Shown: positions 2,856 through 47,322, counted from the first letter of the stretch. The stretch: 64,000 bases of DNA from an uncultured Gammaproteobacteria bacterium (GCA_964527425.1 CAZGOA010000003.1:29941-93940), one strand, 5' to 3'. Program-made: numbers and translations. Notes: generated by a model not told the origin, from the letters alone.

Positions 2856-2950
2856 CTAAGGAGTAACTTATTCAAACAAGAATCGGAAAATTTATCCAAG
2901 AAAATAGCGTTGTAGTGTTTTGATCCTTATTAGTTTTGGGTTTACGAAAC

Positions 2951-2959
2951 TGTTATAGT
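2951..2959 (+). promoter_or_regulatory. extended -10 element TGtTATAGT, 6 nt upstream of the bcp ATG at 2966 (candidate leaderless promoter)
   Basis: TGnTATAGT motif seen in sequence. The same architecture recurs at several other genes. Confidence 0.3.
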
Positions 2960-2965
2960 ATGGAT

Positions 2966-3415
2966 ATGATTGCACCAGACTTTAATCTTCCAGACCAGAA
3001 GGGAAATAACCATCGATTGTCTGATTATCAGGGTAAATGGAGGGTTGTTTATTTTTATCCTAAAGATCATACACCGACTTGTACTAAAGAGGCATGCAGT
3101 TTTCGGGATGCCAAAGAAGATTTTGTAAAACATGATGTGGTTGTTTTTGGAATTTCTGCAGATACGGTAAGCACTCATAAAAATTTTGCTGAAAAACATA
3201 ATGTATCGTTTCCATTACTGTCTGATACATCGATGGAGACTATAAAAGCATACGGAGCATGGGGCGGGAAACTATTGTTTGGCAGAAGTTTTTTGAGTAT
3301 TTTACGTAAAACCTTTTTAATAAATCCTACTGGCGAGATTGTGAAAGTATATGAAGGTATGGATGTCAAAACACATGCAAGCGAGATACTTGAAGATATA
3401 AAATCTTTAGCCTAA
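2966..3415 (+). CDS. bcp: thiol peroxidase / peroxiredoxin Bcp (AhpC/TSA family)
   Basis: APDFNLPDQ...VVYFYPKDHTPTCTKEACSFRD has the peroxidatic Cys in a T/PxxC context. The ORF track starts at 2936; I prefer the internal ATG at 2966 directly downstream of a -10 element. Confidence 0.8.
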   Translation: MIAPDFNLPDQKGNNHRLSDYQGKWRVVYFYPKDHTPTCTKEACSFRDAKEDFVKHDVVVFGISADTVSTHKNFAEKHNVSFPLLSDTSMETIKAYGAWGGKLLFGRSFLSILRKTFLINPTGEIVKVYEGMDVKTHASEILEDIKSLA

Positions 3416-3462
3416 CAAGACATAACATATACAGGTATCGAACTGATGTGTAATATGTGACT

Positions 3463-4302
3463 ATGGGAGTACGTATTGATGGTAAAAAAATAGCTGACGA
3501 GCTGTTAGCATCTCTTCGTGAACAGATAAAAGTCCACAATCTCCATCCACACCTTGAAGTAATTCTGGTTGGAAATGATCCAGGATCTCTTTCTTACATT
3601 AAACAGAAACAAAAAGCGGCAGAATCTATTGGTGCAACCGTTAATCTTACTCAATTTTCACCTTCAGTTACAAAAGATGAGATGATCAAGCAAATCCAAA
3701 GTTTGAATTCATCTTCTACAGTATCTGGAATTATTATTCAACGACCACTGCCAGCAGAAACAAAGATTCCAGCATCGGTTATTTCTTCTATTATTCCACA
3801 AAAGGATGTGGACGGATTTGTACCTCATTCTCGATATGAAGTACCTGTAGCAAAAGCGATTATTAAAATTCTTGAATATATTTTTTATAAAGAATTTGAT
3901 ACTCCACAAATAGATTTAATAAATTGGCTCAGAACTCAACGTGTCGTGATTATCGGTAAAGGGGAGACTGCTGGCAAGCCGATTTTACACTTGTTTGAAC
4001 GATTGTCTATCCCTGTTATTGTGATTGACCGTTCTACTCTTCACCCTCACGAGCTTATGAAAAACGCGACAATTCTTATTTCATGCGCAGGTTCTGCAGG
4101 TCTTATTACTGGGAAGCATATTCGGGATAGTTCTATTCTTATTGCAGTGGGATTAAGCAGGAGTGAGGGATCGTTAGTTGGAGATTATGATGAAGAGAAT
4201 ATTAGGGAAAAAGTTTCTTTCTATACACCAACGCCTGGTGGAGTAGGGCCAGTAAATGTTGCCTGTCTGATGGAAAATCTGGTGAAGGCGAGTGAGAGAT
4301 AA
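3463..4302 (+). CDS. folD: bifunctional methylenetetrahydrofolate dehydrogenase/cyclohydrolase
   Basis: MGVRIDGKKIADEL...ILVGNDPGSLSYIKQK...GPVNVACLMENL aligns with FolD. The start is moved to the M that aligns with FolD N-termini; TAATAT lies 6 nt upstream. Confidence 0.8.
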   Translation: MGVRIDGKKIADELLASLREQIKVHNLHPHLEVILVGNDPGSLSYIKQKQKAAESIGATVNLTQFSPSVTKDEMIKQIQSLNSSSTVSGIIIQRPLPAETKIPASVISSIIPQKDVDGFVPHSRYEVPVAKAIIKILEYIFYKEFDTPQIDLINWLRTQRVVIIGKGETAGKPILHLFERLSIPVIVIDRSTLHPHELMKNATILISCAGSAGLITGKHIRDSSILIAVGLSRSEGSLVGDYDEENIREKVSFYTPTPGGVGPVNVACLMENLVKASER

Positions 4303-4346
4303 ATTAATTCTTCTTAGTCAGGCAAACTCAGATTCGATCAGGAATA

Positions 4347-4391
4347 CTTCCGATCCGGGATCGGTAGCCTCATCCGATCCGGGGTCGGAAG
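4347..4391. repeat. palindromic interspersed repeat, module-2 type (CTTCCGATCCGGGATCGG-TAGCCTC-ATCCGATCCGGGGTCGGAAG)
   Basis: Self-complementary CCGATCCGGGATCGG core, shared with at least 8 other loci in the window. Confidence 0.8.
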
Positions 4392-4458
4392 AAACTAGCC
4401 TATAATATTTGTGTTATTCCTTATTTTTCGTTATACTATCTATCCCTATACACTATCT

Positions 4459-5505
4459 ATGAATGAACAAAAGTCATTTAAACCGGATAATTTAGAATTT
4501 CAGATGTATCTATCTCGATTCAGTAATGATCATCCAGGTGTACTGGAAACATTTTGGCGTGATCCTCTGTTTTTAGATCATGTAACTTCATTACATATTA
4601 ATCCTGAAGCTCTTTCAAAACTCCAGAGACATGAAGTTGCCGCGACATTGATTGCACCACCTAGAATGAGGGCGGCATTTATGCATGGACCTATGCGGGC
4701 AATCCTTAGTCGGGTTGATTATGAAGGATATAGTAAATACTTAACTGACTATGCTCAGAGTACAATTTCAGGACAACAGTCATTCACCCAATCAAGATTC
4801 AATAGTGATTCTTTGAAATTTGCTTTTCAAACGCTAAATCGATTAGTTGACCCCTTGGTGAATAGCTATGGACAGCCAGTCTCAGACCTTCTTAACAACG
4901 ATCCATATCTGAATGCCAGATTTCGACTCTATACAAACCTACAATACCCAGAGGATGTACTGCGGGATAGTTTTCAAACATCTTATACTACCTATCAAAC
5001 AATACTTGAACGCTGTATTACTCATGCAAACGGCAGTCATGAATTTTCTTATCTCCATGCATCTAGTAATAGGGTCCGAGAACTGGCACACATACGACTA
5101 TTAAAAATGACTGATATAGCTCAAATTGCCAAAGGTCTCACCAGAACCAGTAACGGATTTGTAACCCCAGAACTTGTTACTCAAAGACAGCTATATAAGT
5201 GTATAGAGCTAAAAGACGATCATTTCGGACTAACTCATTCAACGGTTCAGGAGCTTAACACTCACTTGCGAAACCATAACCGCAGTATGGGTGATCCTGA
5301 AGAAAACGAAGGGTATATTCCTGAACTAGGCACATCATCGGGTTGTCCATTTGGACATGAAGGAAGTCAGCAACCGAGATATTCAGATAATCCGCTCGAG
5401 GTACAATACCTTCCTGCTCATTTGCGTCAGGACATTGTTGAACCTATAGATATCATACATCAGTGGATTTGCTTACTGGCAGAAGCTTATAACCAACATA
5501 TATGA
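4459..5505 (+). CDS. hypothetical protein, paralog A of a tandem pair (C-terminal TSSGCPFGH motif)
   Basis: Long ORF with no recognisable family. Its stop overlaps the start of the next gene (ATGA). It shares the motif ...TSSGCPFGHEGSQQPRYSD with the downstream paralog. Start set at MNEQKSF; the track ORF begins at 4411. Confidence 0.5.
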   Translation: MNEQKSFKPDNLEFQMYLSRFSNDHPGVLETFWRDPLFLDHVTSLHINPEALSKLQRHEVAATLIAPPRMRAAFMHGPMRAILSRVDYEGYSKYLTDYAQSTISGQQSFTQSRFNSDSLKFAFQTLNRLVDPLVNSYGQPVSDLLNNDPYLNARFRLYTNLQYPEDVLRDSFQTSYTTYQTILERCITHANGSHEFSYLHASSNRVRELAHIRLLKMTDIAQIAKGLTRTSNGFVTPELVTQRQLYKCIELKDDHFGLTHSTVQELNTHLRNHNRSMGDPEENEGYIPELGTSSGCPFGHEGSQQPRYSDNPLEVQYLPAHLRQDIVEPIDIIHQWICLLAEAYNQHI

Positions 5506-6704
5506 GAGAAGTACTAACAAATAATCCAAATACTGACTATATCTCATTATTGATACAAGACGCAAAAGACCGTCCAGACGATTATCCCTGCAATGGAGTA
5601 CAAGATTATACTCACGATCTTCGAACGATAGCGGCGTCTATGCTGGCAGATACAAGACTTGGTATTGAAATTGTTCCATACGGAAACACCATTAGAGTCA
5701 CAGTGCAACATAACTTAGTCGGTGAGATTGAGGATATTCCTGATATCAACACTGTTGATGCACTTATGACTATATTAAAGACCCATTATGCACCGGATCA
5801 TCTAAGAGGAGATTTTCATAAAACTGTAACTAATCGTTTACTCAGACAGACTCATTTACCACAGATTACTCGTACTGATATTACCAGTTTGGAGAGTGAA
5901 GAACATGCTATTGAAATGGACTATCTTCCAGACTACTTAACTCAACCTCATCGCTTACTCAATGCACTGTTTGTTCGAGTTGAGCAAACAGAAAATATAC
6001 CTGAAATTTGGAATCGTATTATCAGCCCAGACATTCTCAAAAAAGAGCCGGTTATCGCATTCAGACTTTATCAGTATGCGTATTATAATTCGTTCGATAC
6101 AATTATTTCAGACGGTGTGATTGGACAGGTTAAAATTACTCGGGCACTGTTATTTAGCATTATTGAACGCCTCGATCGAACCAATCCCATATATTCACCA
6201 GATATTCCTACAGCGCTTCACGCTGCGCAGTATATTCTGCGAAGTAAAAATTTTATGCACATGATGTTTGAATTAACACAGATACCAAATGGACATCTGA
6301 TTCCAGGCATCCAACATCCGCTATTACCGGACAATAGATGGCAATACTTTACCTCTAGTCTCCGTATATCTGATGGGGATATTGCGTTTACCGATCAGTA
6401 CCGTGAAGAATTGGATCGGAATATAAAAACACATAATAATCGTTCAGGTACTCTTCCTGACACTTTACGCAATAAGCCATATACAGTGTTAGAAGCTGCA
6501 ACTACGTCAGGTTGCCCACTCGGTCACGGAGCACCCAGTAAACAAACGTTTTCTGATGACAGAAATAACATCGCTTTTTTCCCAGATAAAGCACTAACAT
6601 CTGTAAACAAACACCCGATTATTAGCCTTAATGATACGTTAATTGACCTGATTGACATGGTAATCACTGATAAAGAACTTCAACAATCATTATTAGCATC
6701 ATAG
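5502..6704 (+). CDS. hypothetical protein, paralog B of a tandem pair (C-terminal TTSGCPLGH motif)
   Basis: 400 aa ORF translationally coupled to the upstream gene. Conserved block EAATTSGCPLGHGAPSKQTFSD. Confidence 0.5.
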   Translation: MREVLTNNPNTDYISLLIQDAKDRPDDYPCNGVQDYTHDLRTIAASMLADTRLGIEIVPYGNTIRVTVQHNLVGEIEDIPDINTVDALMTILKTHYAPDHLRGDFHKTVTNRLLRQTHLPQITRTDITSLESEEHAIEMDYLPDYLTQPHRLLNALFVRVEQTENIPEIWNRIISPDILKKEPVIAFRLYQYAYYNSFDTIISDGVIGQVKITRALLFSIIERLDRTNPIYSPDIPTALHAAQYILRSKNFMHMMFELTQIPNGHLIPGIQHPLLPDNRWQYFTSSLRISDGDIAFTDQYREELDRNIKTHNNRSGTLPDTLRNKPYTVLEAATTSGCPLGHGAPSKQTFSDDRNNIAFFPDKALTSVNKHPIISLNDTLIDLIDMVITDKELQQSLLAS

Positions 6705-6741
6705 ATGCAGACAGACTATGGATATGCTATAACTAGAGTAT

Positions 6742-7479
6742 ATGAACTCAATAAAATCATATTTAGTTATTCCTGTAGTATTTTTTGCTTTATTGTTTGT
6801 TTATTCAAAAATTGGCGGTCCTATTCCGCTTTCTGTCAACAGTGTTGTCACACAAAAGATGGATGCATTCACGGTATCTGGCGAGGGTAAGGTAAGTATT
6901 TCTCCTGATATGGCTGTTGTGACTATTGGCGTGCAGACAACAGGCAATACTGTTAAAGCAACTCAAAATGATTTAAATCGTCGTATTAACGCTGTAAGTG
7001 AAGCAGTTAAGAGATTGGGTATTTCTGACGCTGACATTCAAACGAGTAACTATTCGATTTATCCAGACTATGATTTTCAAGCTCCTTTACAAAGAATAAC
7101 TGGATATAACGCATCGAGTAATTTGGTGATTAACATTAAAGATCTTGATAAAACGAACGACGTGATTGATGCCGCAACAGCTCAAGGTGCAAATAGCGTC
7201 AGTGGTGTCACTTTTGATGTTGAGGATAAAGAAAAAGCACAAAATGAAGCTCGGGAATTGGCAGTTACTGATGCAAAAAAGAAAGCACAGACAGCTGCAA
7301 ATATCGCAGGATTTTCACTTGGGAAAATTGTAAACTACTCAGAAAATTTTGGTGGGGGAGGCATTGGCCCGCTTCCATATATGGCACGTGATATTGCATT
7401 AGAATCAGTCAAAACAGACGTTCAACCAGGATCTCAGGAAATACTAGTCAATGTGTCATTGAGTTATGAGATACAGTAA
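6742..7479 (+). CDS. SIMPL-domain protein (DUF541; YggE/26 kDa periplasmic immunogenic protein-like)
   Basis: N-terminal signal/TM segment followed by a SIMPL-like domain (VSGEGKVSISPDMAVVTIGV...NYSIYPDYDF...DAKKKAQTAANIAG). Confidence 0.6.
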   Translation: MNSIKSYLVIPVVFFALLFVYSKIGGPIPLSVNSVVTQKMDAFTVSGEGKVSISPDMAVVTIGVQTTGNTVKATQNDLNRRINAVSEAVKRLGISDADIQTSNYSIYPDYDFQAPLQRITGYNASSNLVINIKDLDKTNDVIDAATAQGANSVSGVTFDVEDKEKAQNEARELAVTDAKKKAQTAANIAGFSLGKIVNYSENFGGGGIGPLPYMARDIALESVKTDVQPGSQEILVNVSLSYEIQ

Positions 7480-7487
7480 CTCGGAAA

Positions 7488-8426
7488 TTACTTACGGTGA
7501 AACTTCTGATGAATATCTCGAAGTTGGGGGTTGGTGACATGGGTGTAAATTTGGGTAGTTGAAACGTTTTTGTGACCTAACATTTCTTGAATAGCACGTA
7601 AGTCTGCTCCATTGTGAAGTAAATCTGTAGCATAACTGTGTCTGAGTCCATGAGGAGTTATTTTGATGGGTAGTTTTGCCTTTTTTACATACTTTTCTAC
7701 CATTCTCTGAACGCTTCTGGCAGATAGTCTTAAGGATTCACCATCTTTATCATCCGGATCGGGGGTTGGTCCGTTATATCGAATAAATAAGGCCTTAGAA
7801 TCATCTCTTCTGTTTGAAAGATAACGAGTAACCCACTCAACAGCTGAATCTGATAAAAAGACAACTCGTGCCCTTCTTCCTTTTCCTATAACGCCAAATT
7901 CTTTCCGTTCAAAATTGATTTGATCTCTATTCAAACTCACTAATTCTGAAACACGAAGTCCTGTTGAGAACAATAATTCCAGTATCGCTTTATCTCTTAG
8001 TCCTTCTTCTTCTGATAGAGAAGGCATATTCAGCAGTCGATCAACATCACTTCGTTCTAAAAATTTTATACTTCTGCTTTCAGCTTTGGCTAGATCAATT
8101 TTCTCTGGATGGACTGTTTCGACATCCCGTTTCATCATATATTTAAGAAAAGATCTGACAGCTATTAAATGGTAATTTTGGGTAACTCTTTTTAAACTTA
8201 AGCCTTTTTCATCGACATAACGCGATAAAAATAATCGGTATTCACGAATCCGATCTGCTGTGAGATGACTAACCTGTAGTTGTTCGGGAGAGGAGGGGAG
8301 AGTCTGAGCTAAAAATCCTATAAGTCGAGATAAATAATGATGGTAATTACGAACGGTTAGTTGAGAAACATTTCGTTCAATTTCGAGGTATTCTAAAAAC
8401 TGTTTAACTGCTTCTGTTAATGGCAT
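7488..8426 (-). CDS. tyrosine site-specific recombinase, XerC/XerD family
   Basis: C-terminal catalytic box HGLRHSYATDLLHNGADLRAIQEMLGHKNVSTTQIYTHV (R..H..R..Y). Confidence 0.8.
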   Translation of the reverse strand: MPLTEAVKQFLEYLEIERNVSQLTVRNYHHYLSRLIGFLAQTLPSSPEQLQVSHLTADRIREYRLFLSRYVDEKGLSLKRVTQNYHLIAVRSFLKYMMKRDVETVHPEKIDLAKAESRSIKFLERSDVDRLLNMPSLSEEEGLRDKAILELLFSTGLRVSELVSLNRDQINFERKEFGVIGKGRRARVVFLSDSAVEWVTRYLSNRRDDSKALFIRYNGPTPDPDDKDGESLRLSARSVQRMVEKYVKKAKLPIKITPHGLRHSYATDLLHNGADLRAIQEMLGHKNVSTTQIYTHVTNPQLRDIHQKFHRK

Positions 8427-8485
8427 TATTTATAATGTGCGACATCTGGATAGAAAAATCAAGTCTTAGGTGTAATTTTTTTATG

Positions 8486-9094
8486 TTACTCAATAGTCCA
8501 AATGACAGGACGTTTGCGAGCATATTCAACTTCGTATCGTTTATATTGACTAAATTTAGTGTATGGCCAAATAGATACCTTTTTATCTACATAGTTCCCA
8601 TGAATAAGGAGTGGTTCTTTATGTTCATCATATTGTAAAAAGAGTGCGAGATGAGGACCTGGATACTGTAATTTTAAAGCTCTTTCTAATGCATCATTTC
8701 CTCGTATCTCATTTGGAATAGCCCGAAATTCTTTAATATTAGCCTGAGCAAAAAAGAATATATCTCCTAGCTGTAAGGGTTCATCTACCAATAAAGGACG
8801 TACATAGGGATTGGGTAAAATCATATGAACTGGATCGAGGGTAGGGGGCAGTTTATACGTAAATAATCTCTCTAATAAATAGTGAACTACATACACACAA
8901 TTCACTTCTGTTTGACCTTTTAGATAATATGGAACCTGATCGGGACTTTGGTGATAGTTATACGGCGCTCCCATTATTTCTTGTATGGCGTGATGTTGAG
9001 AAGTTTCGTGATTGAAAAAAGTTGTCTCCTTTAGAATGCTGTTAACTATACTAAATGTATATTTTTCTGACAACCCAAGAACCAGATGACGCAT
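8486..9094 (-). CDS. NlpC/P60-like (C40 papain-fold) hydrolase, no signal peptide
   Basis: Pattern NCVYVVHYLL...LQLGDIFFF...HLALFLQYDEHKEPLLIHGN resembles the Cys...GDL-FF...H-G-Y...H core of NlpC/P60. The track start at 9121 is an artefact of the adjacent repeat (MNVCIRDR encoded by repeat DNA), so the start is moved to MRHLVLG. Confidence 0.4.
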   Translation of the reverse strand: MRHLVLGLSEKYTFSIVNSILKETTFFNHETSQHHAIQEIMGAPYNYHQSPDQVPYYLKGQTEVNCVYVVHYLLERLFTYKLPPTLDPVHMILPNPYVRPLLVDEPLQLGDIFFFAQANIKEFRAIPNEIRGNDALERALKLQYPGPHLALFLQYDEHKEPLLIHGNYVDKKVSIWPYTKFSQYKRYEVEYARKRPVIWTIE

Positions 9095-9097
9095 AGT

Positions 9098-9296
9098 TCG
9101 ATCCCGGATGCAGACATTCATCCGATCCCGGATCGAGGTAAGATCTCCTTAAAGTTAGTTCATCTCGATCCGGGATGCAGACATTCGTCCGATCCCGGAT
9201 CGGAGTAAGATCTCCATAAAGTTAATTCATCTCGATCCGGGATGCAGACATTCGTCCGATCCCGGATCGGTAGCCTCTTCCGATCCCGGATCGGAA
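9098..9296. repeat. tandem array: 3 x ~65 bp units (39 nt hairpin module plus 26 nt near-identical linker) ending in the TAGCCTC plus module-2 palindrome
   Basis: TTCGATCCCGGATGCAGACATTCATCCGATCCCGGATCGAGGTAAGATCTCCTTAAAGTTAGTTCA, followed by TCTCGATCCGGGATGCAGACATTCGTCCGATCCCGGATCGGAGTAAGATCTCCATAAAGTTAATTCA, followed by a third copy, then TAGCCTCTTCCGATCCCGGATCGGAA. Confidence 0.85.
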
Positions 9297-9322
9297 TAAT
9301 CAAGATCTGATACACTAAAGAT

Positions 9323-10639
9323 ATGCCTGCCTATACCAGTAAACTTGTTGATCCTGGCGTGTGTATTGTATTTGCCTATGCTCCTGCTGGATTGGGTCAC
9401 TTACGAGTGACTGATGCGCTGTATCATGGTCTACCTCAGGAATGCGATCCAATGCTTTTGCCTGATACTGCTGTGTCTGTTAAGACTCTCCATAGGTTGA
9501 CAAGTAGTAATCCTTTTGCAAAGCGTTTTTTTGAATGGTCTCAGCAAGGAGTACCAGAAACGATTATTACGAGAATATATCGTTTCATGCTTCATCAGGA
9601 TGCCCGTTTCATGCAGAAACGATTATTAGAGTTATTAAAACAACGAATTCAATTACCTCATACATTGGTTATTGTAGCCACTCATTATGGTATTGCTCAC
9701 CAGGTATCTGTAATAAAAAAAGATCTAGAACGTTTAGGAAATGTTCGAGTGTTGCTCGTTGTTCAAGTAACAGATGATAGTCCTCAGAAACTCTGGTACG
9801 TACCACATGCCGATTTACTCTGTGTGCCAAGTGAATTTACATATACATCACTACAGACATATGGTAGATTGGAACATTTAGGCAAAAGTCGAATTGTTAT
9901 TCTTCCATATCCTGTGAGTCCACGCCTATTACAACCACGTTCTCAGCAAGATATGGACTTAGCGATGCATCAAACTGATCCGTTAAGTCAGGTGCTTATT
10001 CATACGGTAATCCCAATATCAGGTGCTGCAGTCGGAATACCATATTTGAGAAAATTGATGCATAAACTTCATACATTAGAACCCAGAATGCGATTTCATA
10101 TTATTGTAAAACGCTCAATATTTACCCTATCTGCAATCCGATCCTGGAAACGAAAAGGATATATGTATGTATATGAATCTCGTTCTGATAGAGAGATTAT
10201 TGATCTATATGAACGTGTATATGAGCAGGAAAAAATTGTATTGGAGATAACTAAACCATCTGAACAGTCATTTAAAGCACTTATTCCGCCCAACAGGCAA
10301 GGGGGGAGTATTTTACTTTTTGCACCTCCTGTTGGAAGACAGGAGTATGATAATGTAAGTTTTTTACAGCGTAATGGGTTAATCCCGTCTGGTGAGGAAT
10401 ATAGACAATTGTGCGACGTCTTGAATTTAGAACAAAATAGACCTATTCCATTACCCATATCCCATTGGCGCGGGTTTAGACTTTCTGATGATCCAGTCAT
10501 TGCAGCTAAATGGATAAGTCGTGCATTAACATTTAGGATTTTTCAGTCTATGATTTCTGGGAAAGAACATAAACGCTCAGATGAAGTGAGTCCTGAGGGT
10601 GTTGAGGAATTCTGGAAGCAAGTGGTGTCGTTGTTATAA
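9323..10639 (+). CDS. GT-B glycosyltransferase, MGDG-synthase/UgtP-like (GT28-related)
   Basis: N-terminal APAGLGHLRVTDAL resembles the GGGH..AA.AL motif of MGDG/diglucosyl-DAG synthases. LWYVPHADLLCVPSE resembles the GT28 C-terminal region. Confidence 0.45.
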   Translation: MPAYTSKLVDPGVCIVFAYAPAGLGHLRVTDALYHGLPQECDPMLLPDTAVSVKTLHRLTSSNPFAKRFFEWSQQGVPETIITRIYRFMLHQDARFMQKRLLELLKQRIQLPHTLVIVATHYGIAHQVSVIKKDLERLGNVRVLLVVQVTDDSPQKLWYVPHADLLCVPSEFTYTSLQTYGRLEHLGKSRIVILPYPVSPRLLQPRSQQDMDLAMHQTDPLSQVLIHTVIPISGAAVGIPYLRKLMHKLHTLEPRMRFHIIVKRSIFTLSAIRSWKRKGYMYVYESRSDREIIDLYERVYEQEKIVLEITKPSEQSFKALIPPNRQGGSILLFAPPVGRQEYDNVSFLQRNGLIPSGEEYRQLCDVLNLEQNRPIPLPISHWRGFRLSDDPVIAAKWISRALTFRIFQSMISGKEHKRSDEVSPEGVEEFWKQVVSLL

Positions 10640-10900
10640 ATATTTTTTAAAAAATATTTGAAAAAAATAATTGTAAATTGTTTTTTTAGTCCTTTTGCCC
10701 GCCAAAAGGACTAAAAGCTCGTGAGCAGGTGAAAGAAGAATGATTTTTTCTCTCTCATTCGTTGGGAGACATGCTTCCCTCGCCAACACTAAAGGTTGGC
10801 CTCTCCCAACACTCATTCGTTCGAAAAACTCTATCATTCTTCTTTCAACGCTCACACTCAGTAAAATTATTATGATATATAAATCTGATATACTTTTGAG

Positions 10901-11812
10901 ATGACTCTTGGTATTAAGGTTGGGCCTCAGAAACAAAGTTTTAATGATCTGGAGCTTACACAAGCTCCATTTTGTGAAGTTTGGTATAACATCTGTAAAA
11001 AAGATGATTACACTGATTTATTTGAGATTGTAAAACGTCGAAATATGGAGGTTGGTCTTCATTTCTGGGGGCATTTAGACGATCAGACCTGGACAAATAT
11101 TGCTTACCCCGATAGTCGTGTCATTTCTGAGTCAATGGCTTTAATGAAAGAAACAATCGACATTGCTGCGACGCATCATTTTCAATATGTAAATATTCAT
11201 CCGAGTAACTATGCCTTATCAAAAATAGATTTTGAAAAACAATCATTTGAACTGTTAACGCCACCTGCACCTGATTCTGTCTGTGAGCAAACCTTTTTTG
11301 AACATCTTACGGCACTCAATACGCATGCTCACAATCGTGGTGTTGTTTTACTTATTGAAACGGTTCCACATTTAGATACGAATGGCTGGCGTGGAACTAG
11401 TCCCAGACTTAGACCTATTAACTTATATGCACCTGACAATTCACTTATCGTGAAAGCCTCTACAATGGGTTTCACGATCGCAAATGACTTCGGGCATACC
11501 AGTTGTACTGTGCAATCTGATAACCGGTCTATTATTTGGCAGCATCTTAATCGTATGACTCATCAATTATTTAACCAAACTCGTTTACTGCATCTTGCAT
11601 ATATTATTCCGCCATATAATGGCACTGATTATCATTCACATCTTGATGCAGATCAGTTTGAATCAGAACTGGCAGTACCGAATAAACAGGAATTAATACA
11701 ACTCCTACATCTCTTTAAAGACCGATCTGATGTCTGGGCTTTAGTTGAACCTGATGGCAGACATGTAGAAAACTATTTCTATGCTAAGAAACTTCTTGAT
11801 TTGGTCGAATAA
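10901..11812 (+). CDS. sugar phosphate isomerase/epimerase-like TIM-barrel protein (xylose isomerase-like fold)
   Basis: GLHFWGHL...YVNIHP...VLLIETVP...DFGHT pattern of AP-endonuclease-2/xylose-isomerase-like TIM barrels. Confidence 0.45.
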   Translation: MTLGIKVGPQKQSFNDLELTQAPFCEVWYNICKKDDYTDLFEIVKRRNMEVGLHFWGHLDDQTWTNIAYPDSRVISESMALMKETIDIAATHHFQYVNIHPSNYALSKIDFEKQSFELLTPPAPDSVCEQTFFEHLTALNTHAHNRGVVLLIETVPHLDTNGWRGTSPRLRPINLYAPDNSLIVKASTMGFTIANDFGHTSCTVQSDNRSIIWQHLNRMTHQLFNQTRLLHLAYIIPPYNGTDYHSHLDADQFESELAVPNKQELIQLLHLFKDRSDVWALVEPDGRHVENYFYAKKLLDLVE

Positions 11813-12832
11813 ACTCTTATTTCATCGTTTAGCTTGTCAGAATAATCTAATTCTGTATTTTTCACGCAAGAGCAGAGGTAACTTGAATCTGTTTAAAGCT
11901 AATACTGACGGTTTATGGCAGATATGATGATTTGAGTTCAAACAGAGCATAAAGCAGAAATACAAAAAGTACTGGTAATTAGAAATAAATAGACAAATAC
12001 CATACAAATAGGTACTGGAAGAAAGAGTTAAAATGAAACCTCTCTTGAGGCTAAATATCAATGTAGCGTCGCAAAAGTATTATTGTCCGACGTATATAGC
12101 TAGCTCACCTTGCCCTCAAAAATGAACACTTTTTGACCTTTATGAAAGTATATGATCAAACATAGATATTCTTGTTATTATGATTCTTCCCAAAGAACCT
12201 CATATACACTCTTTGCCTCCATATCATCTAATAGTAATCACGTAGAAAACACCATGCGTTCAAAAGCTAGTCAATAAGGCGGTGAGTGCTTGCGTCTAAT
12301 CTCAAGTGAGTGACAGCAATGTACAGGTAACTTACCTTTTAATTGCGGGGCAAAAGATTTTTGAGTAGGCAATTTTTGAGACACTTACAGATCGCTGGAA
12401 ACTGCTACTTTAGTCTGCATAAGCAATTCATATTTAGAGCGTTGCAACAGTCTAAATGACACTTTTTGAGGCTGTTTTACAACAAATTGGAACAATACGC
12501 TCTTTCGGGTTTTCTTAGATAGTTGAAATTTCATTGTTCTATCAATCTATTTGACACTTTTTGAGGCTATGATATATAAAAATGAATACATTCTGTTTCT
12601 TTTGAGGGGACATTTAGCAGTAAGGGTGTCGGGTTGATAAATTCTCCCTCACTACGCTCGAGAATAGATTAAATTGTGTAAATGATGAACTCAATACACT
12701 CAAATCAGGTCCTATAACATCGTGAAAACTTTATTAAATTTTCGTGAAAACTTATCCACATTAATATTATAGGCTTATAGTATAACTGTATCATACTATA
12801 TCATCTACTCCTCTCTCCTACTTCTTTTGAAC

Positions 12833-13669
12833 TTAAATAATGCCGTACCAGTTTGTTGTAATCACAAAGATAATCCCCACTATTATGGATACGCTTGCAA
12901 ATTCTATGACGGTCTTTTTATACATACGTTCTACGAGAAATTGTTGGGCCAATCCAGTAACACTATAAAAAATCGTTGTGATCAATAGAGCCTTTATTGA
13001 AGTTTTTACGGGCCAAAACGATAAAACCCATGCAAACTGCGTGAAAAGTACGGTTAATGCAGCAGTTAAATGATACAATCTACTACTCGCCTTTTCTGAT
13101 AATTCAATCGCCCACAAAATTTGAAACACTAACGGAGCACTAAGAAGCATTACCATTACTGTAGTAAACAGAGCATGCTCTCGTAGAGCAAATACTGTGG
13201 AAAGTAACAAAAAATAGGTAATGAGTGTTAGAAGAAACCCAACAGTATGTGCGGCTCTCAATAAGGCAATAGAGCGTTCTGCAGCCACGTTATATATATT
13301 TTCGGTAAGAAGTAACGCATACATTCCTAATATGTATAACGACGCAATTGGAATTCGGGTAATCCATCGAGTTGGGAGTAAAAAATAAAATAGTGTAACT
13401 GCTGCAGTAAACAACGTGGGTAGTGTTAAGAGAGTAACAAATTCTATGCCTTTTAAGTCACGGCGCAGGACAATTGCACTTCCAATGTATGTTAGAACAG
13501 ATAATACAATTGTCATTTGATAGCGATATTCTGGTATTAATTGTGTAAGAATAAGTCCTGCAGTCAGTATAAGACAAACAACCACAAATTCTTGGCGCTT
13601 GGTTAGACCAATGCTCCAGTCTTTAAACTGTATTAAGCTTAATCTTCGTCTCAAACGTATAAATCTCAT
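12833..13669 (-). CDS. hypothetical polytopic membrane protein
   Basis: 278 aa with at least 7 predicted hydrophobic helices and no recognisable motif. Confidence 0.5.
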   Translation of the reverse strand: MRFIRLRRRLSLIQFKDWSIGLTKRQEFVVVCLILTAGLILTQLIPEYRYQMTIVLSVLTYIGSAIVLRRDLKGIEFVTLLTLPTLFTAAVTLFYFLLPTRWITRIPIASLYILGMYALLLTENIYNVAAERSIALLRAAHTVGFLLTLITYFLLLSTVFALREHALFTTVMVMLLSAPLVFQILWAIELSEKASSRLYHLTAALTVLFTQFAWVLSFWPVKTSIKALLITTIFYSVTGLAQQFLVERMYKKTVIEFASVSIIVGIIFVITTNWYGII

Positions 13670-13741
13670 ACATTCTTTCGGATATCTCTCGATTATACAT
13701 GCTTGTTGCTAGATCTAAAAATATGCATGCTTATACACGTG

Positions 13742-14461
13742 TTAACTATTGGTGTAGACTCGCTGAACATCATCCAACTCTTGTAATAAATCAACAATCG
13801 TCTCTATCTTTGTTTGCGTAGATTCGGTAATTTGAATTGGGATTGTTGGGATAAACATTATCTCAGATGAGTCTACTGGAATTGTTCTTGCTTGAAGTTG
13901 ATGCAGAATTGTTTCGAATTGCTCTACCTCACTGATAACCTCAACTTCATTGTCGTAAAACGAAACGTCGCTAGCACCTATTTCGATAAGATAATCTAAT
14001 AGCTCATCATCTGTAAGAGATAGCGGTCTTTTAATGAGAATGATTCCAACTTTTTTAAATTGAAAGGCAACTGAACCTGGTGTCGCAAGACTACCTTCAT
14101 GATGATCAAATATATTTTTTATCTGTGACACAGTACGAGTTTTGTTCTCTGTGGCTGCTTCTATGAGAAATGCCACCCCTTGGGGCCCATACGCCTCATA
14201 CACTAACGATTCCATTTGGTCTTGCCCTCCCCCTTTCCCTTTTGCGATGGCGCGATCAATATTGTCTTTAGGCATGTTTACTTCTTTTGCTTTTTCGATA
14301 GCGAGTCGCAGTTTAAAGTTACTTTGTGGATCAGTTATGCCACCCCCTTCTTTCACTGCAATAGTAATACCCCGACTTGCTCGGGTAAAGGCTTTTGCTT
14401 TAACCACATCAGTTACTGCTTTTTGATGTTTTACTTTTGACCATTTTGAATGACCTGCCAT
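13742..14461 (-). CDS. YebC/PmpR family DNA-binding transcriptional regulator
   Basis: MAGHSKWSKVKHQKAVTDVVKAKAFTRASRGITIAVKEGGG...RAIAKGKGG is the YebC signature. The start is moved to the MAGHSKW Met. Confidence 0.85.
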   Translation of the reverse strand: MAGHSKWSKVKHQKAVTDVVKAKAFTRASRGITIAVKEGGGITDPQSNFKLRLAIEKAKEVNMPKDNIDRAIAKGKGGGQDQMESLVYEAYGPQGVAFLIEAATENKTRTVSQIKNIFDHHEGSLATPGSVAFQFKKVGIILIKRPLSLTDDELLDYLIEIGASDVSFYDNEVEVISEVEQFETILHQLQARTIPVDSSEIMFIPTIPIQITESTQTKIETIVDLLQELDDVQRVYTNS

Positions 14462-14567
14462 ATAATAAAATATATACTGTACAACCAATTCAGTTTTGTC
14501 TTGTTAATACTTGGTATTTTACTCGCTATATTGACTTTTCACAATAAAATCCATACACTCGATTCTC

Positions 14568-15272
14568 ATGAACGGAACGCCTGCAACCGCAGATAAAGCT
14601 ATTCAAGCAGCTCTCAATCAACAATGGGATTTAGCTGTAGAGTGCAATAACGCACTTCTCTCACTCAACGAACATGATATTGACGCCCTCAACAGGATTG
14701 GATTTGCATATATACATTTAGGAAAGCAAAAACAGGCAAAAGAAGTATTTGAAAAAGTATTAACTCTCGATAAATACAACCAAATCGCTCAGAGGAATCT
14801 TACCAAATTAAAAAATAAAGGAAATGTTGAGGTAAATGGAACGGTTGCCTCCCCTCTTATGTTTCTTGAAGAACCCGGTAAAACAAAAGTTGTGGCCTGT
14901 GTAAAACTTGCTCCGGCTGCAACTCTTGCTGCTGTTCGCTGCGGTCAAGAAGTTCATATGAAAGTGAAAAAACATACCATTGAAATACGAGATGATGAAC
15001 AGGTATATCTTGCTGCTCTTCCAGATGATATGTCTTTTAAGTTAAGCCGTTTAATTGATGGCGGAAACCAGTACGTATTGATCGTACGATCTGTTGGTAA
15101 GAATTCACTGAGTGTATTTATACGGGAAACTGTACGAGGCAAAAAGTTTGTCAATCAACCATCGTTTACCCCGACTTCTACTTATGTCCCAACGACTCGA
15201 GCTGAGGATCAAACGGAAAAGCCGGATACTTCTACAACGGGCGAAGAAGAACAAGAAAGTGGTAATGAGTAA
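14568..15272 (+). CDS. hypothetical protein with N-terminal TPR-like repeat and acidic S/T-rich tail
   Basis: LNRIGFAYIHLGKQKQAKEVFEKVLTLDKYNQIAQRNL is TPR-like. No other match. Confidence 0.4.
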   Translation: MNGTPATADKAIQAALNQQWDLAVECNNALLSLNEHDIDALNRIGFAYIHLGKQKQAKEVFEKVLTLDKYNQIAQRNLTKLKNKGNVEVNGTVASPLMFLEEPGKTKVVACVKLAPAATLAAVRCGQEVHMKVKKHTIEIRDDEQVYLAALPDDMSFKLSRLIDGGNQYVLIVRSVGKNSLSVFIRETVRGKKFVNQPSFTPTSTYVPTTRAEDQTEKPDTSTTGEEEQESGNE

Positions 15273-15284
15273 AAACGAAGTTTT

Positions 15285-16268
15285 TTAGTTAGTAATAAAT
15301 CGATCCGCAAAGGTTTTTCCTACTCGAATGGTTAAGTCTGCTTGCTGTTCCTCTTGAATTGTTTCATACTCACATTCAAAAAGAGACATGATACGTTTTG
15401 ATGTTATGCTATCCAGAGATTCTTGATTTCCTGTCATTACACACCCTAGAACTTGTGAATCAGTATCGTTCCCTACTGCAACGACATTAGCGCCTAATTT
15501 GCCAATCATGCGACCCACACGCGCACCGACTGCAGGAGTATTTGTTGTATTATACACTGCTACTCTCAGTGCTTCTTTTCTAACCTGCAATTCTTCAAAC
15601 GCATCCTGAGTACGAATATCAAAGGCTTGTCTGTCGAAACGCAAAAACCACGCACCATCAGGTCCTGTTTGTCTTACGAGTCCGCTACCTTCCTTAATTA
15701 TATATCGTTCAACTCGTTGCGGTTCCATATTTCTAATGCGCCACCATAGTCGTAAGTAGTCAGGAAAGGACATATTTGTATCAAACTTTTTTGTAAGAAA
15801 TGGCACCACATTCGTAAGGGTAATCGTTTCCTGAAGAATTGATATGGGGCCTGACCATTGGGCAAAATCACTTGTACTCGGTACTATGTAATATGGTATA
15901 TGAACTCCTAATTCCTCTGCAAAACTTTCTCTTAGTATGGCAGAAGGGCTGGATTCTGATTTTCCCAGTTGCCATAACGCATCAAGTCGATATTCACCAA
16001 GACCAAATACTCCACTGATATGCGCATCTTTTGTCATTTGGATAATAGTCCAAAAATTTCTGTTTTCATCATAGGAAACAACTTCTACCGGATCGCTTAT
16101 GGTCATAATAGTAAATCTTCCATTTTCAAATGGTTGACGAGCCAATAGCCATATTCCAATCCCTAACAAGCCTATAATCAAAAAGATAATAAAGAGAAAG
16201 CGAACAATTGGAGGAGTATAACGATCTTTACTTCGGGCAGAGGACATAACCTTTATCGTATCAGCCAT
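15285..16268 (-). CDS. membrane-anchored protein with LytR_C-like C-terminal domain
   Basis: One N-terminal TM helix. The C-terminal LRVAVYNTTNTPAVGARVGRMIGKLGANVVAVGN...DLTIRVG resembles the LytR_C domain. Confidence 0.4.
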   Translation of the reverse strand: MADTIKVMSSARSKDRYTPPIVRFLFIIFLIIGLLGIGIWLLARQPFENGRFTIMTISDPVEVVSYDENRNFWTIIQMTKDAHISGVFGLGEYRLDALWQLGKSESSPSAILRESFAEELGVHIPYYIVPSTSDFAQWSGPISILQETITLTNVVPFLTKKFDTNMSFPDYLRLWWRIRNMEPQRVERYIIKEGSGLVRQTGPDGAWFLRFDRQAFDIRTQDAFEELQVRKEALRVAVYNTTNTPAVGARVGRMIGKLGANVVAVGNDTDSQVLGCVMTGNQESLDSITSKRIMSLFECEYETIQEEQQADLTIRVGKTFADRFITN

Positions 16269-17428
16269 TGATGCTCTAACTCAAGGAGTGTTCCTTGTTC
16301 TATCGAGGTATGTATATCCCTTACAAGCCTGTGTAAGAAATACAGATTATGGATTGTTGCCAGTCTATAGGCAAGCAGTTCTCTGACTGAAAATAGATGG
16401 TGCAGGTATGCTTTTGAGTACGTGTTACATACGTAACACTGACAAGTCGTATCAATAGATGATGAATCGGCTTTGTGTGCGGCATTGGTAATATCAATCC
16501 ACCACTTCCCTTTTTGCTTTTGTCGGGTGTAAACGTAGCCACTACGTGCAAGTCGGGTTGCCTGAACACAGTCAAATGTATCTACTCCTGATTTTACTGC
16601 CTGAAAGATATCATCAATTTCACCTACTCCTAATAAATGTCTTGGTTTTTCTTTGGGAAGTATAGGTAAAACCCAGTTAAGCACGTTATACATATCTTGC
16701 TTGCTTTCTCCCACTGATACCCCACCTATAGCAATACCATCTGTATCGAGTTGAGAAATAAATTCTGCTGACTGTTTTCTTAAGTCTTCATAAATACTAC
16801 CTTGTATGGACCCGTACAATGCCTGATAAAGCCCCGTTGACTTATGCGCAAGTAGTCTATGAGCAGATACACTTCTTTGTGCCCAACGATGCGTTCGTTC
16901 CATTGAAGATGTTGCTTCCTCTTTCGTCACTCCATTTGGCGTACAATCATCAAATGCAATATGAATATCGCTTCCTAATTCCCACTGATATTGCATAGAA
17001 ACCTCTGGAGTAAAATCATGATAACTACCGTCCCAATGAGAACGAAACTTTACCCCTTCTTCTGATATGTTTACTAAATTTGGCTGTCCGTCATCTTTTT
17101 CTGCTTTGTGATTATTTGCTAGAGAAAATACCTGAAATCCTCCACTATCAGTAATGATAGGACCATTCCAACTCATGAACGTATGCAGTCCTCCCATTGT
17201 TTTAACTAATTCTATTCCTGGGCGCATAGCCATATGGTAGGTATTCACAAAAAACATTTGAGTTCCTACTTTTTGAATTTCTTCTGGTGTTAAAGATTTA
17301 ACTGTCGCCTGCGTTCCTACAGGAATAAACGCTGGTGTTTGAATATCTCCATGTGGAGTATGGATAACTCCTAAACGAGCATTTGTTTTTGTATCTTTGT
17401 GAATTTCAGTAAAGGAAAATGTGTTCAT
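16253..17428 (-). CDS. tgt: queuine tRNA-ribosyltransferase
   Basis: TPAFIPVGTQATVKSL...VNTYHMAMRPG...ITDSGGFQV...GGVSVGE plus C-terminal Zn-binding CxCxxC...H. Confidence 0.9.
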   Translation of the reverse strand: MNTFSFTEIHKDTKTNARLGVIHTPHGDIQTPAFIPVGTQATVKSLTPEEIQKVGTQMFFVNTYHMAMRPGIELVKTMGGLHTFMSWNGPIITDSGGFQVFSLANNHKAEKDDGQPNLVNISEEGVKFRSHWDGSYHDFTPEVSMQYQWELGSDIHIAFDDCTPNGVTKEEATSSMERTHRWAQRSVSAHRLLAHKSTGLYQALYGSIQGSIYEDLRKQSAEFISQLDTDGIAIGGVSVGESKQDMYNVLNWVLPILPKEKPRHLLGVGEIDDIFQAVKSGVDTFDCVQATRLARSGYVYTRQKQKGKWWIDITNAAHKADSSSIDTTCQCYVCNTYSKAYLHHLFSVRELLAYRLATIHNLYFLHRLVRDIHTSIEQGTLLELEHQWLIR

Positions 17429-17539
17429 ATACTGCGTTTAAAAGGTATGTATTGTAGTAATATTTCAGGTTTTAGAAACTATTATTGAAAACATTGTAAA
17501 ATTTGGGCATGGTCCTGTATCATCTGGACCAACATATCA

Positions 17540-18331
17540 TTATTGTACTGTTTTATGTAATGTTGATAGAACCTGCTGCATATCTTCTGGTATTGGAGCG
17601 TTTATATTCACAGACTCGCTTGTAGTGGGATGATTAAAAGTTATATTAGCAGCATGAAGCATGACCCTGGGAACCCAGGTGCGATCGTCTCTTGCTGTTT
17701 TGCGTCCTGCATAGAGATAATCACCTAATATAGGCCTGTTGATGTATTTTAGATGGACCCTAATCTGATGTGTGCGGCCAGTCTCTGGAAAACATTCTAC
17801 TAACTGATATCGTTCTTTTTTCTTTTTAACTTCTTTTGAGTAAGAAGCAAGCACCTTATATCTCGTTTGTGATTCTTTTCCATCGGGAACAACACCAAAT
17901 TGTTCTTTATTCCATGGTAATCTGCCAATTGGTGCATTGATTGTCCCCTCTTGAGACGGCATTAATTCATGAATGATAGCCAGATAACTTTTTTTAACAG
18001 TTCTATCCATAAACTGTTGTTTTAGCGCACTAAATGATTCTGGAGTTTTGGCTATTAACAAAATTCCCGAGGTTTCTTTATCTATACGGTGAACTATACC
18101 TGAACGATTATAAAATTCTACCACTGGATCATAGACTACTTCTTCACCTTCTGCTTTAACTGGCTTTACGTTAGTTATCCGAGGAGGATTATTCTTTAAC
18201 TCAGGAAATTTATCTTCTAACCAATCCTGTATCGTTTGAGTTTTAACAGATTGTGCCCTATTTACTACAACAGACGGCGGCTTGTTGATTACAAGCATTG
18301 CAGTATCTTCTAGTAAGATAGGTATATTCAT
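17540..18331 (-). CDS. RluA-family pseudouridine synthase (RluC/RluD-like)
   Basis: Catalytic HRIDKETSGILLIAKT motif and overall RluA-family layout. Confidence 0.85.
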   Translation of the reverse strand: MNIPILLEDTAMLVINKPPSVVVNRAQSVKTQTIQDWLEDKFPELKNNPPRITNVKPVKAEGEEVVYDPVVEFYNRSGIVHRIDKETSGILLIAKTPESFSALKQQFMDRTVKKSYLAIIHELMPSQEGTINAPIGRLPWNKEQFGVVPDGKESQTRYKVLASYSKEVKKKKERYQLVECFPETGRTHQIRVHLKYINRPILGDYLYAGRKTARDDRTWVPRVMLHAANITFNHPTTSESVNINAPIPEDMQQVLSTLHKTVQ

Positions 18332-30153: not shown

Positions 30154-30214
30154 TCCCGGATTGTATCATATTATAGGTTATATCACATACTAGTAAGCTT
30201 GTTATAATGAGGAT

Positions 30215-30502
30215 ATGTCAACATACCCAACCAAAGAAATGAACGAGTTATTTGAAGCGATCGTAAGCATTTCAGACAAAAAAGAAGCAGCTAATTTTTT
30301 CAGAGACTTACTGACTCTTCCTGAAATAGAAGAATTTGCTAATCGATGGCAGATTGTAAAGCTGCTTGTGCAAAAAAAATCATATTTAGAGATTGCCAAT
30401 ACCTTGAATGTTTCTACAACGACAGTTACACGTGTTGCTCAATGGCTAAACAATGGAATGGGTGGATACAAAAAGATAGCTGAACGAATGTTTAAGAAGT
30501 GA
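30215..30502 (+). CDS. TrpR-like protein, YerC/YecD family
   Basis: 95 aa with FFRDLLTLPEIEEFANRWQIVKLL...NVSTTTVTRV; the length and motif match this family. Confidence 0.7.
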   Translation: MSTYPTKEMNELFEAIVSISDKKEAANFFRDLLTLPEIEEFANRWQIVKLLVQKKSYLEIANTLNVSTTTVTRVAQWLNNGMGGYKKIAERMFKK

Positions 30503-30775
30503 TTATTTATATGCTCCTTGGTGATGTAGAAAGTGTTTGAACCTGTTGGTGCAGTATAGTTATTCAAGTTTGTTAATTAACTCAGGATCACAACAGTAAA
30601 TACTACAAATTATTACCATTTATCAACACTAATCTTGACTCATGCATATCACTATGTTAACATACTAACACATGAACTTAACACGAATTCTTTATAGAGA
30701 GCATCATTACTCCCCTTCTTTGAAGAAGAGGGAGCTTCTTCAGAGCTAGTTATTAACTCACTTAATATAAAGTTT

Positions 30776-30799
30776 GCTCCCGTAAGGGAGTTTTTTTTT
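30776..30799 (+). terminator. rho-independent terminator-like hairpin (CTCCC-GTAA-GGGAG) followed by T9
   Basis: A perfect 5 bp GC-rich stem, a GNRA-like loop and a 9-T tract, 12 nt upstream of the 30812 ATG. Confidence 0.45.
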
Positions 30800-30811
30800 G
30801 CTAATTACACT

Positions 30812-46954: not shown

Positions 46955-47021
46955 TTAGGAGTAAATCAGTTTCTGTATCATTTTTACTGTAGAAAAAGGA
47001 GGTTTAGAAGCAACAAAAACA

Positions 47022-47195
47022 ATAAGAGCGTGTGGTCCGTCTTCTTAGACGGAATACGAGGAAAGGGCCCCTATGGGGAATCGAACCCAAGATAAACTCT
47101 TGGAGAATCAGCGGAAACCCTTCGGTTGTAACGTACAATCGTGACAAATGACTAAAATCTTTCTGGTAACAGATTGGACAAAGGTTTTTTGAATA
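47022..47195 (+). ncRNA. structured 5' leader of glmS; candidate glmS ribozyme/riboswitch
   Basis: Five perfect or near-perfect hairpins (CCGUCU-ucuu-AGACGG, CCCC-uau-GGGG, GGG-aaucgaa-CCC, CCAAGA-uaaac-UCUUGG, GUUGUA-acg-UACAAU). ACGAGGAAAGGG plus the downstream CCCUUCGG resembles the glmS-ribozyme GACGAGGAGGAGG...CCUCC pseudoknot. GGACAAAGG resembles the conserved UGAACAAAG. Confidence 0.3.
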
Positions 47196-47322
47196 CGTTT
47201 GCTTCTTTATACTACTCATTACTACGATTTATCTTTAACGTATCTTGGAAGAATAATTGCTCAATTACTGCGTCCTAACATGAGGAATGTAATTATTCTG
47301 CAAGATACTCGACTTTACCTAT

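Follow-up and report, generated by a model that had tools for sequence, protein, structure and literature searches.

Positions 11813 to 12832 of the window analysed here (64,000 nucleotides, 29941-93940 of contig CAZGOA010000003.1, assembly GCA_964527425.1) form a spacer that represents, in this genome, a non-coding DNA locus conserved in Microgenomates-type bacteria of the candidate phyla radiation (CPR), located between a gene for a DUF5656 membrane protein and a gene for a Xer-family tyrosine recombinase (xer). The best-supported reading of the locus is that it represents a new form of the known dif/Xer-type system. From its sequence we consider it moderately probable that the spacer carries a conserved dif-type Xer site together with a large flanking array of protein-binding motifs. 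The functional centre would be a single 28-bp site at 12066-12093.

The conserved locus

The spacer is bounded by the stop codons of two convergent genes in the 64-kb window, contains no open reading frame (ORF) of more than 74 amino acids, and is the longest intergenic region of this compact genome. A preliminary description of the window had pointed to it as a gene-free convergent spacer at which the coding strand polarity switches. Both statements held, and the polarity switch is also conserved in relatives. Among species-representative genomes the DUF5656 protein has 59 relatives with 37-68% identity, nearly all of them labelled Gottesmanbacteria, Woesebacteria, Microgenomates or Patescibacteria, and the window belongs to a Gottesmanbacteria-like CPR bacterium. 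In approximately 50 of these 59 related species genomes DUF5656 is followed by an ORF-poor gap of 0.6-1.5 kb, and the window spacer aligns (blastn) to the relatives' gaps in syntenic position. In metagenome loci a DUF5656 homologue ends 250-1600 nt upstream of the core site described below, on the same strand, wherever enough upstream DNA is present. Identity of these homologues to the DUF5656 protein of the window goes down to 28%, so that these lineages are far more distant than those of the first set. All loci are phylogenetically related, and the counts reported here therefore overstate independent support. A literature search yielded no description of dif, oriC or non-coding RNA (ncRNA) for these lineages.

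Comparisons within four close species pairs revealed how the element evolves. Mismatches in DUF5656 were concentrated at codon position 3 (p = 1e-26 to 1e-36) and no indels were seen, whereas in the element the mismatches displayed no 3-periodicity and most indels were not multiples of three. The element had diverged by 12-21% and the third codon positions of the adjoining gene by 35-50%, so that the element evolves 2-3 times more slowly, demonstrating that the whole 1-1.3 kb is under purifying selection (alignments of variable segments are imperfect). Small proteins were rejected as the source of this constraint. Conserved short ORFs stack up on common DNA blocks, in several frames and in both directions, their apparent conservation is thus nucleotide conservation, and codon periodicity was absent.

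A dif-like core site linked to xer

The core of the site is a near-invariant palindrome of 24 nt, GTCGYACAA-TAATAC-TTTTRCGAC (12068-12091). Together with its flanks it reads A-Y-GTCGYAMAA / TAATAC / TTTTRCGAC-G-T across loci, the right arm also occurring as TTKTRCGAC-G-T, and this yields a layout of 11+6+11 bp with arms that match at 9-10 of 11 positions around a 6-bp spacer. Purine-rich GGRGAA blocks lie approximately 20 nt to either side. The core is present in 48 of 60 genome loci, and a search with the pattern GTCGYACAATAATACTTTTRCGAC gave at least 120 matches among metagenome contigs, each contig having one; altogether it is conserved, at a non-coding position, in at least 170 loci. It is single in the window and in 165 of the 180 loci scanned locus by locus. 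The core had no place in the preliminary description, which had suggested a look for dif-like XerCD sites. Directly upstream of the core is a -10-like hexamer (Table 1), with the consensus TATWAT at positions -6 to -1 in 153 unique sequences; judged from sequence, this is a possible promoter overlapped by the dif-like site. A second palindrome (GTCGCAAAAGT-N10-TTGTTGCGAC) directly follows the core, 10-40 nt 3' of it, in a subset of species (8 loci), with the same arm sequence as the core and a longer spacer. A phage attachment site was ruled out, as the core had no match in viral contigs.

A Xer-family recombinase, the presumed partner of the site, is encoded near it. The protein encoded in the window contains the Pfam domain Phage_integrase and a SAM-like N-terminal domain (SAM_1). 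Its scores against the NCBIfam models were 245 bits for XerC, 239 for XerD and 217 for XerA, all under their cut-offs, and 126 bits for XerS (cut-off 267), and the closest solved structures are those of E. coli XerD (1A0P) and Pyrococcus XerA (4A8E). Clustering of the genes downstream of the core showed that the commonest encodes a tyrosine recombinase of approximately 318 amino acids. For loci with at least 3 kb of downstream sequence, a Xer homologue was found within 5 kb downstream in 82 of 89, at a median distance of 1.2 kb. All 82 linked homologues are on the strand of the core, and none was found upstream.

In 18 loci no other gene comes between the core and xer, which starts at a distance of 250-990 nt. 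Elsewhere one gene, rarely two or three, precedes it, and the identity of this gene differs between lineages; in the window, three genes separate the core from xer. Cassettes mobilised by Xer were considered for these intervening genes and rejected: no second dif-like site flanks them, and they had no PHROGs or PADLOC matches. Three independent public assemblies carrying the GyrA of the window all end at approximately 9188, between the genes at 8486-9121 and 9323-10639, and in relatives the slot between xer and core holds 0-3 unrelated genes. The shared assembly end points to a content of this interval that varies from strain to strain.

These data also bear on an explanation by transcriptional control only, in which a conserved repressor, Xer or another protein, would have the palindrome as its operator over the promoter of the xer operon, and the repeated modules described below would be further operators, with no recombination involved. 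Only 0-1 nt separate the TATWAT hexamer from the palindrome, xer is close by where it is the next gene, and the dyad positions are independently degenerate, as in transcription-factor sites. However, the palindrome stays invariant in the majority of loci, where 1-3 unrelated genes, often on the opposite strand, separate it from xer; an 11+6+11 layout beside a tyrosine recombinase gene is what marks a recombination site; and an array of 1 kb would be very large for the promoter of one housekeeping gene. We therefore regard control of transcription as a doubtful account of the whole locus.

Repeated modules

The preliminary description was right in substance and slightly off in details of copy number and position. 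It had listed at least seven copies of a TTTTGAG core in the spacer, three of them extended. Exact TTTTGAG occurs six times in the 1.02-kb spacer (12115 on the minus strand, 12359, 12374, 12464, 12559, and 12600). As there are 31 copies in the whole 64 kb, approximately 0.5 are expected in the spacer, and the enrichment is non-random (Poisson p ~ 1e-5). Only two exact extended copies, GACACTTTTTGAGGCT, are present (12458-12473 and 12553-12568), and the copies that had been placed at 12114, 12358, 12374, and 12600 are loose matches without conservation in relatives.

Each GACACTTTTTGAGGCT 16-mer is part of one copy of a 49-nt direct repeat, whose copies (12441-12489 and 12536-12584) are 95 nt apart and 73% identical, and both 16-mers are the reverse complement of the head, AGCCTCAAAAAGTGTC, of a larger module. 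On the minus strand the module has the consensus TAGCCTCAAAA-N7-TTTRGMGCRT-N4-AYGCKCYAAAT, in which the head is followed by an imperfect palindrome, so that a 43-nt module is made up of a polar 11-mer and a dyad-symmetric 24-mer. Relatives carry 1-6 modules per locus with a period of approximately 86-97 nt, and the window carries 2-3, with a third conserved head motif, TTGAGGCT, at 12045-12052. The spacing from head to palindrome was exactly 33 nt in all 37 strict module instances. A sigma-70 match seen by eye at 12551 (TTGACA-N17-TATATA) was discarded as chance, since it is not conserved in relatives.

Pair counts were obtained from 88 module copies. The three variable arm pairs were Watson-Crick in 53, 34, and 23 cases, as compared to 51.6, 37.2, and 34.7 expected, and mutual information revealed no column pair above the shuffled maximum. 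Together these results ruled out an RNA hairpin in the module. Because symmetric positions tolerate two bases independently, the dyad arms fit a protein-binding DNA site and not an RNA stem. A protein-binding site array was among the roles that had been proposed for the spacer, and it is supported by these data: the motif first noticed heads a repeated module whose arms vary as the arms of DNA sites do, and the modules are predicted to be bound by protein.

Order of the array, DnaA-box-like motifs and replication signals

All motifs of the array keep one orientation and form an ordered set that is common to the gaps of relatives. On the minus strand, i.e. the coding strand of DUF5656, the order is GATATAGT repeats, AAACTATAGG, TGTGGATAA, two TTTCACG, CTTGAGTACAC, and the modules, followed by ATAAAAAACCCGAA, approximately 215 nt, the core GTCGCACAATAATACTTTTGCGAC, and GGAGAAG. 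In many species there is then a 3' block, CTAGGTCAYTACAGGGGCTCAAA..TGAGGCTAAA; this block (CTAGGTCAYTACAGGGGCT) is absent from the window locus. Motif TGATATAGT was found in 50 of 60 loci, and in other clades the AACCCGAA-type motif is found past the core, approximately 180 nt downstream. In a distant clade, where CCTATAAT is repeated four times, the motifs follow another order but keep their orientations, which, from sequence, is more in line with clusters of DNA sites than with one folded RNA.

Three of the motifs resemble DnaA boxes. The perfect box noted earlier is present, at 12752-12760 and not near 12762 as first given, and its element-strand form, TGTGGATAA, was found in 103 of 134 related loci, never more than once per locus and invariably in the same orientation. 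TTTCACR occurs in 132 of the 134, with two copies per locus at a spacing of 22-23 nt and in the orientation opposite to the perfect box. The longer form GTTTTCACR agrees at 7-8 of 9 positions with TTWTNCACA, which we take to be the DnaA-box consensus. Tandem TATA-rich 9-15-mers adjoin these motifs, and an AT-rich (0.68-0.71), T-skewed tract is located 50-150 nt past the core, on its far side. The block with the GATATAGT/TATAGT repeats also contains a good sigma-70-like match (12794-12766, element strand), and TTGATA and TATAAT/TATAGT elements are conserved.

In the window, no skew breakpoint was found at 12 kb after correction for gene orientation. Calculated by gene, top-strand GC skew at third codon positions (GC3 skew) is positive over 321-11812, negative over the six genes at 12833-18331 (0.00 to -0.18; 220 G vs. 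282 C in total), and positive again past 18.6 kb, which makes the negative stretch a local 6-kb deviation. A local inversion of 12833-18331 is unsupported, DUF5656, core and xer being collinear with relatives. In relatives, gene orientation converges on the locus, with 90-99% of genes on the plus strand to the left and 9-22% to the right (+4 to +8 kb). The skew and orientation signals disagree, and both may be inflated by the shared ancestry of the same genes.

A DnaA-related replication locus would make different use of these motifs. It could be an oriC, or a locus that, like datA/DARS, titrates or reactivates DnaA, with the triad binding DnaA and the repeats and T-rich tract serving unwinding or architectural proteins. 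The fixed orientations and spacing of the triad, the adjoining TATA-rich repeats, the T-skewed tract, the exceptional length of the intergenic region, and the presence of gyrB, gyrA, and dnaB within approximately 12 kb are all in keeping with such a locus. An oriC in particular is unlikely, because there is no gene divergence, no skew minimum, and no dnaA: genes converge on the locus, GC3 skew does not change sign there in relatives, no DnaA signature was detected in the window, and neither dnaA nor dnaN was found in the 10 kb to the left of gyrA. Linkage of oriC to dnaA or dnaN is common, but not obligatory. Where an origin would be expected to have a cluster of several DnaA boxes beside an AT-rich element, the locus has one perfect and two degenerate boxes, and the AT-rich tract is beyond the core; only one box is perfect, and one-mismatch boxes are not enriched in the 64-kb window. 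Neither form of this explanation accounts for the linkage of the invariant palindrome to xer, and we consider a DnaA-related role for the locus as a whole unlikely.

Tests for structured RNA

An unannotated ncRNA was another of the roles first proposed. Rfam searches at gathering score and at E up to 10 gave nothing credible in the spacer, in 12 relatives, or in one divergent locus, and neither a tRNA nor a tmRNA was detected by ARAGORN. In the well-aligned 3' block RNAalifold predicted no pairs. In 120-nt windows on both strands of the 12-species alignment the structure conservation index was at most 0.36 and mostly 0-0.2, near the coding control, and the folding z-scores were approximately -1 and -0.3. 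No conserved terminator was found. Thus, neither a match to a described family nor a structure upheld by compensatory changes was obtained. The core palindrome is the sole part that folds. Combinations at its positions Y5 and R20 were near-independent (CG 62, CA 40, TA 27, and TG 21), 41% of them being non-Watson-Crick, and mismatches occur on either strand.

Such an explanation would invoke a long, weakly structured ncRNA, or several small RNAs, transcribed from the promoter-like block beside DUF5656, with the modules acting as protein-binding RNA motifs. The common orientation of all motifs, the conserved sigma-70-like elements, constraint over the full length of the element, and one clade in which the core stem shows only Watson-Crick or G-U combinations would all suit a transcript. 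These points are outweighed by the empty Rfam searches, by the lack of covariation in both modules and core, and by a motif order that varies between clades, which leave an RNA product improbable. Finally, a neutral spacer, a decayed pseudogene, as also suggested earlier, or a remnant of a mobile element is hardly credible: although the modules of the window are degenerate and its 3' block is absent, the element keeps position and orientation in approximately 170 loci next to DUF5656 proteins just 28-68% identical to that of the window, its conservation reaches well beyond one phylum-level group, it evolves more slowly than synonymous-type sites, and neither the viral-contig nor the PHROGs and PADLOC searches of core and neighbouring proteins gave a match.

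Features and neighbouring genes

Table 1. Features of the spacer and adjoining genes, in order of position in the window.
Feature	Position	Strand	Remarks
Xer-family tyrosine recombinase gene, 312 amino acids	7488-8426	-	Same strand as core, 3.6 kb downstream
AP_endonuc_2-like (xylose-isomerase-like) TIM barrel gene	10901-11812	+	Weak family match
Third head motif AGCCTCAA, then purine-rich GAGAGG	12037-12052	-	16-31 nt 3' of core; equivalent to GGRGAA block of relatives
28-bp dif-like site ACGTCGGACAA-TAATAC-TTTTGCGACGC	12066-12093	-	11-bp inverted arms, 6-bp centre
-10-like hexamer TATATA	12093-12098	-	Directly upstream of core
Module copy 2: head AGCCTCAAAAAGTGTC (motif copy 12458-12473) and imperfect palindrome 12433-12456	12426-12476	-	
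AACCCGAA motif (consensus ATAAAAAACCCGAA)	12504-12511	-	Fixed place, 37/60 genome loci
Module copy 1: head AGCCTCAAAAAGTGTC (motif copy 12553-12568) and degenerate palindrome 12528-12551	12521-12571	-	
Two TTTCACG, degenerate DnaA-box-like sites (GTTTTCACG)	12743-12749 and 12721-12727	-	Direct repeat, 22 nt apart
Perfect DnaA-box 9-mer TTATCCACA (TGTGGATAA on element strand)	12752-12760	+	Sole perfect copy in window
GATATAGT/TATAGT repeats and sigma-70-like promoter match (ATGATA-17-TATAAT)	12766-12804	-	Just past DUF5656 stop codon
DUF5656 membrane-protein gene	12833-13669	-	Conserved upstream neighbour of element

Beyond the spacer (Table 1), six consecutive genes on the minus strand occupy 12833-18331 and encode DUF5656, YebC, TPR, LytR_C, TGT, and a pseudouridine synthase. 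To the left, gyrB, a pyrophosphatase gene and gyrA are grouped (321-2855, plus strand, and the assembly extending left), preceded by type IV pilus genes. The second-longest intergenic gap of the window (30154-30811, approximately 660 nt) separates divergent genes without Pfam match; it is close to the point where cumulative GC skew has its local minimum, and the interval 30620-31299 contains three DnaA boxes with one mismatch. A glmS ribozyme (47016-47201, plus strand; Rfam, 54.8 bits) precedes the GlmS gene (47323-49101, plus strand) in this CPR genome. A Peptidase_M17 (PepA-family) gene is located at 22357-23847 on the minus strand. E. coli PepA is an accessory protein for Xer recombination at cer and psi; the gene in the window may simply encode a housekeeping aminopeptidase.

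Discussion

We propose that the linked Xer recombinase binds the 28-bp site, probably as one homodimer per site, a single recombinase being suggested by the near identity of the two arms. Recombination at the site would serve to resolve dimers of the chromosome, or to integrate and excise DNA, in the manner of the single-recombinase modules difSL-xerS and difH-xerH. With a -10-like hexamer immediately next to the site, binding of Xer may in addition control transcription in the direction of xer. The modules and the DnaA-box-like triad most likely form an accessory or architectural protein-binding array that flanks the recombination site, comparable to those of cer and psi. Binding, recombination and the accessory role of the modules are all inferred from sequence features and from analogy with these systems.

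Several observations weigh against a dif-type site. Chromosomal dif is expected at the GC-skew inversion, yet no replication terminus in this sense was found within 6 to 14 kb on either side of the locus. When the 59 genome loci are aligned on the direction of DUF5656, all 1-kb bins between -7 and +6 kb have a positive top-strand GC3 skew. The more diverse metagenome loci show a positive skew over -14 to +14 kb, and of the 16 that have data on both sides 15 are positive on both. The terminus/dif-proximal region suggested in the preliminary description is thus supported as regards dif, by a palindrome that has a Xer gene nearby in 82 of 89 loci, and not as regards the terminus, since the skew keeps its sign. 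Moreover, the 28-mer resembles known dif sites weakly, and its uniqueness is established per locus, not per genome. The conserved perfect DnaA box and the two TTTCACR beside the site, as well as the binder of the modules, are left unexplained by the proposed model. Finally, the site may have no function beyond that of an operator, or may be bound by a protein other than Xer.

A more far-reaching version of the proposal can be put forward as a tentative and rather speculative possibility. The locus could be a chromosome-maintenance system, phylum-wide in Microgenomates-type CPR bacteria and hitherto undescribed, in which a single-recombinase dif-type site is embedded in approximately 1 kb of ordered polar arrays (43-nt modules, a head inverted on the far side of the site, and the DnaA-box triad). 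Such a system might link the resolution of dimers with the control of replication or with fork arrest, and might work away from the terminus defined by skew, possibly without FtsK.

To our knowledge, CPR bacteria cannot be grown alone, and the replication and segregation of their chromosomes of approximately 1 Mb are almost undocumented. An invariant sequence of 24 nt, linked to a Xer recombinase and retained where the neighbouring proteins are approximately 30% identical, offers a concrete handle that is testable in vitro. As a candidate site for dimer resolution or integration it would be a landmark for genome finishing and perhaps a genetic tool, and the array supplies a set of conserved DNA motifs. 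If the site does lie away from the skew inversion, it questions the rule that dif marks the terminus.

Comparison with known systems

Non-coding chromosomal loci with small clusters of DnaA boxes outside oriC are represented by datA and DARS of E. coli and by the DnaA-box clusters of B. subtilis. The triad described here resembles what we take to be their arrangement, i.e. a small cluster with one box inverted relative to the other two. It differs in having one canonical box, and those loci have no known linkage to a recombination site and no known conservation across a phylum. The accessory sequences of cer and psi, of approximately 180 bp, are bound by PepA together with ArgR or ArcA. In layout only, they share with the CPR locus the predicted protein-binding DNA on one side of a Xer core, and a PepA-family gene is present in the window. 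In contrast, the CPR array is 0.3-1 kb long, chromosomal, and built of 43-nt modules and DnaA-box-like motifs, and no ARG box or ArcA site was recognised in it.

The canonical XerCD-dif of E. coli and B. subtilis and the archaeal XerA-dif have the same 11+6+11 bp layout, and XerD and XerA are the best structural relatives of the recombinase. Canonical dif sites are far from the xer genes, at the terminus, and their two arms differ, binding two paralogous recombinases, whereas the site described here is near xer and its arms are nearly identical. In a comparison by hand with what we take to be the E. coli dif sequence, the window site shares 13 of 28 positions, with CGCA-AA common to its left arm and the XerC arm GCGCATAA. 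This degree of similarity is comparable to that of archaeal dif. For the latter, 14 of 28 positions are shared with the bacterial consensus, and its conserved flanks may bind a partner (PMC2958812).

Further similarities are found to systems with a single recombinase. XerH of epsilon-proteobacteria acts on difH (consensus ..TTGAAAA-CTATAA-TTTTCAA..), whose function is experimentally established and FtsK-dependent (PMC3325230). As in difH, the arms of the CPR site end in A-runs or begin with TTTT around an AT-rich centre of 6 bp, and conserved AT-rich flanks are present. The outer arm sequence differs (TTGAAAA-CTATAA-TTTTCAA vs. CGCACAA-TAATAC-TTTTGCG in the window). In streptococci and lactococci, difSL is a 31-bp site immediately upstream of xerS, at the GC-skew shift, and came to light through comparative genomics (Le Bourgeois et al. 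2007; PMC1914069). The sequence described for it is approximately 50 bp long and more than 90% conserved, precedes the recombinase gene and consists of two imperfect inverted repeats around a centre of 6-8 bp (PMC1914069). The CPR site is likewise a short, conserved, imperfect palindrome in non-coding DNA, linked to a single dedicated Xer-family gene and detected by comparative genomics. It differs from difSL in being 28 bp long and 0.25-5 kb away from xer, often with unrelated genes between and with no skew shift seen, and the CPR system differs from difSL-xerS in that its recombinase is XerC/D/A-like and approximately 1 kb of ordered repeats accompanies the site.

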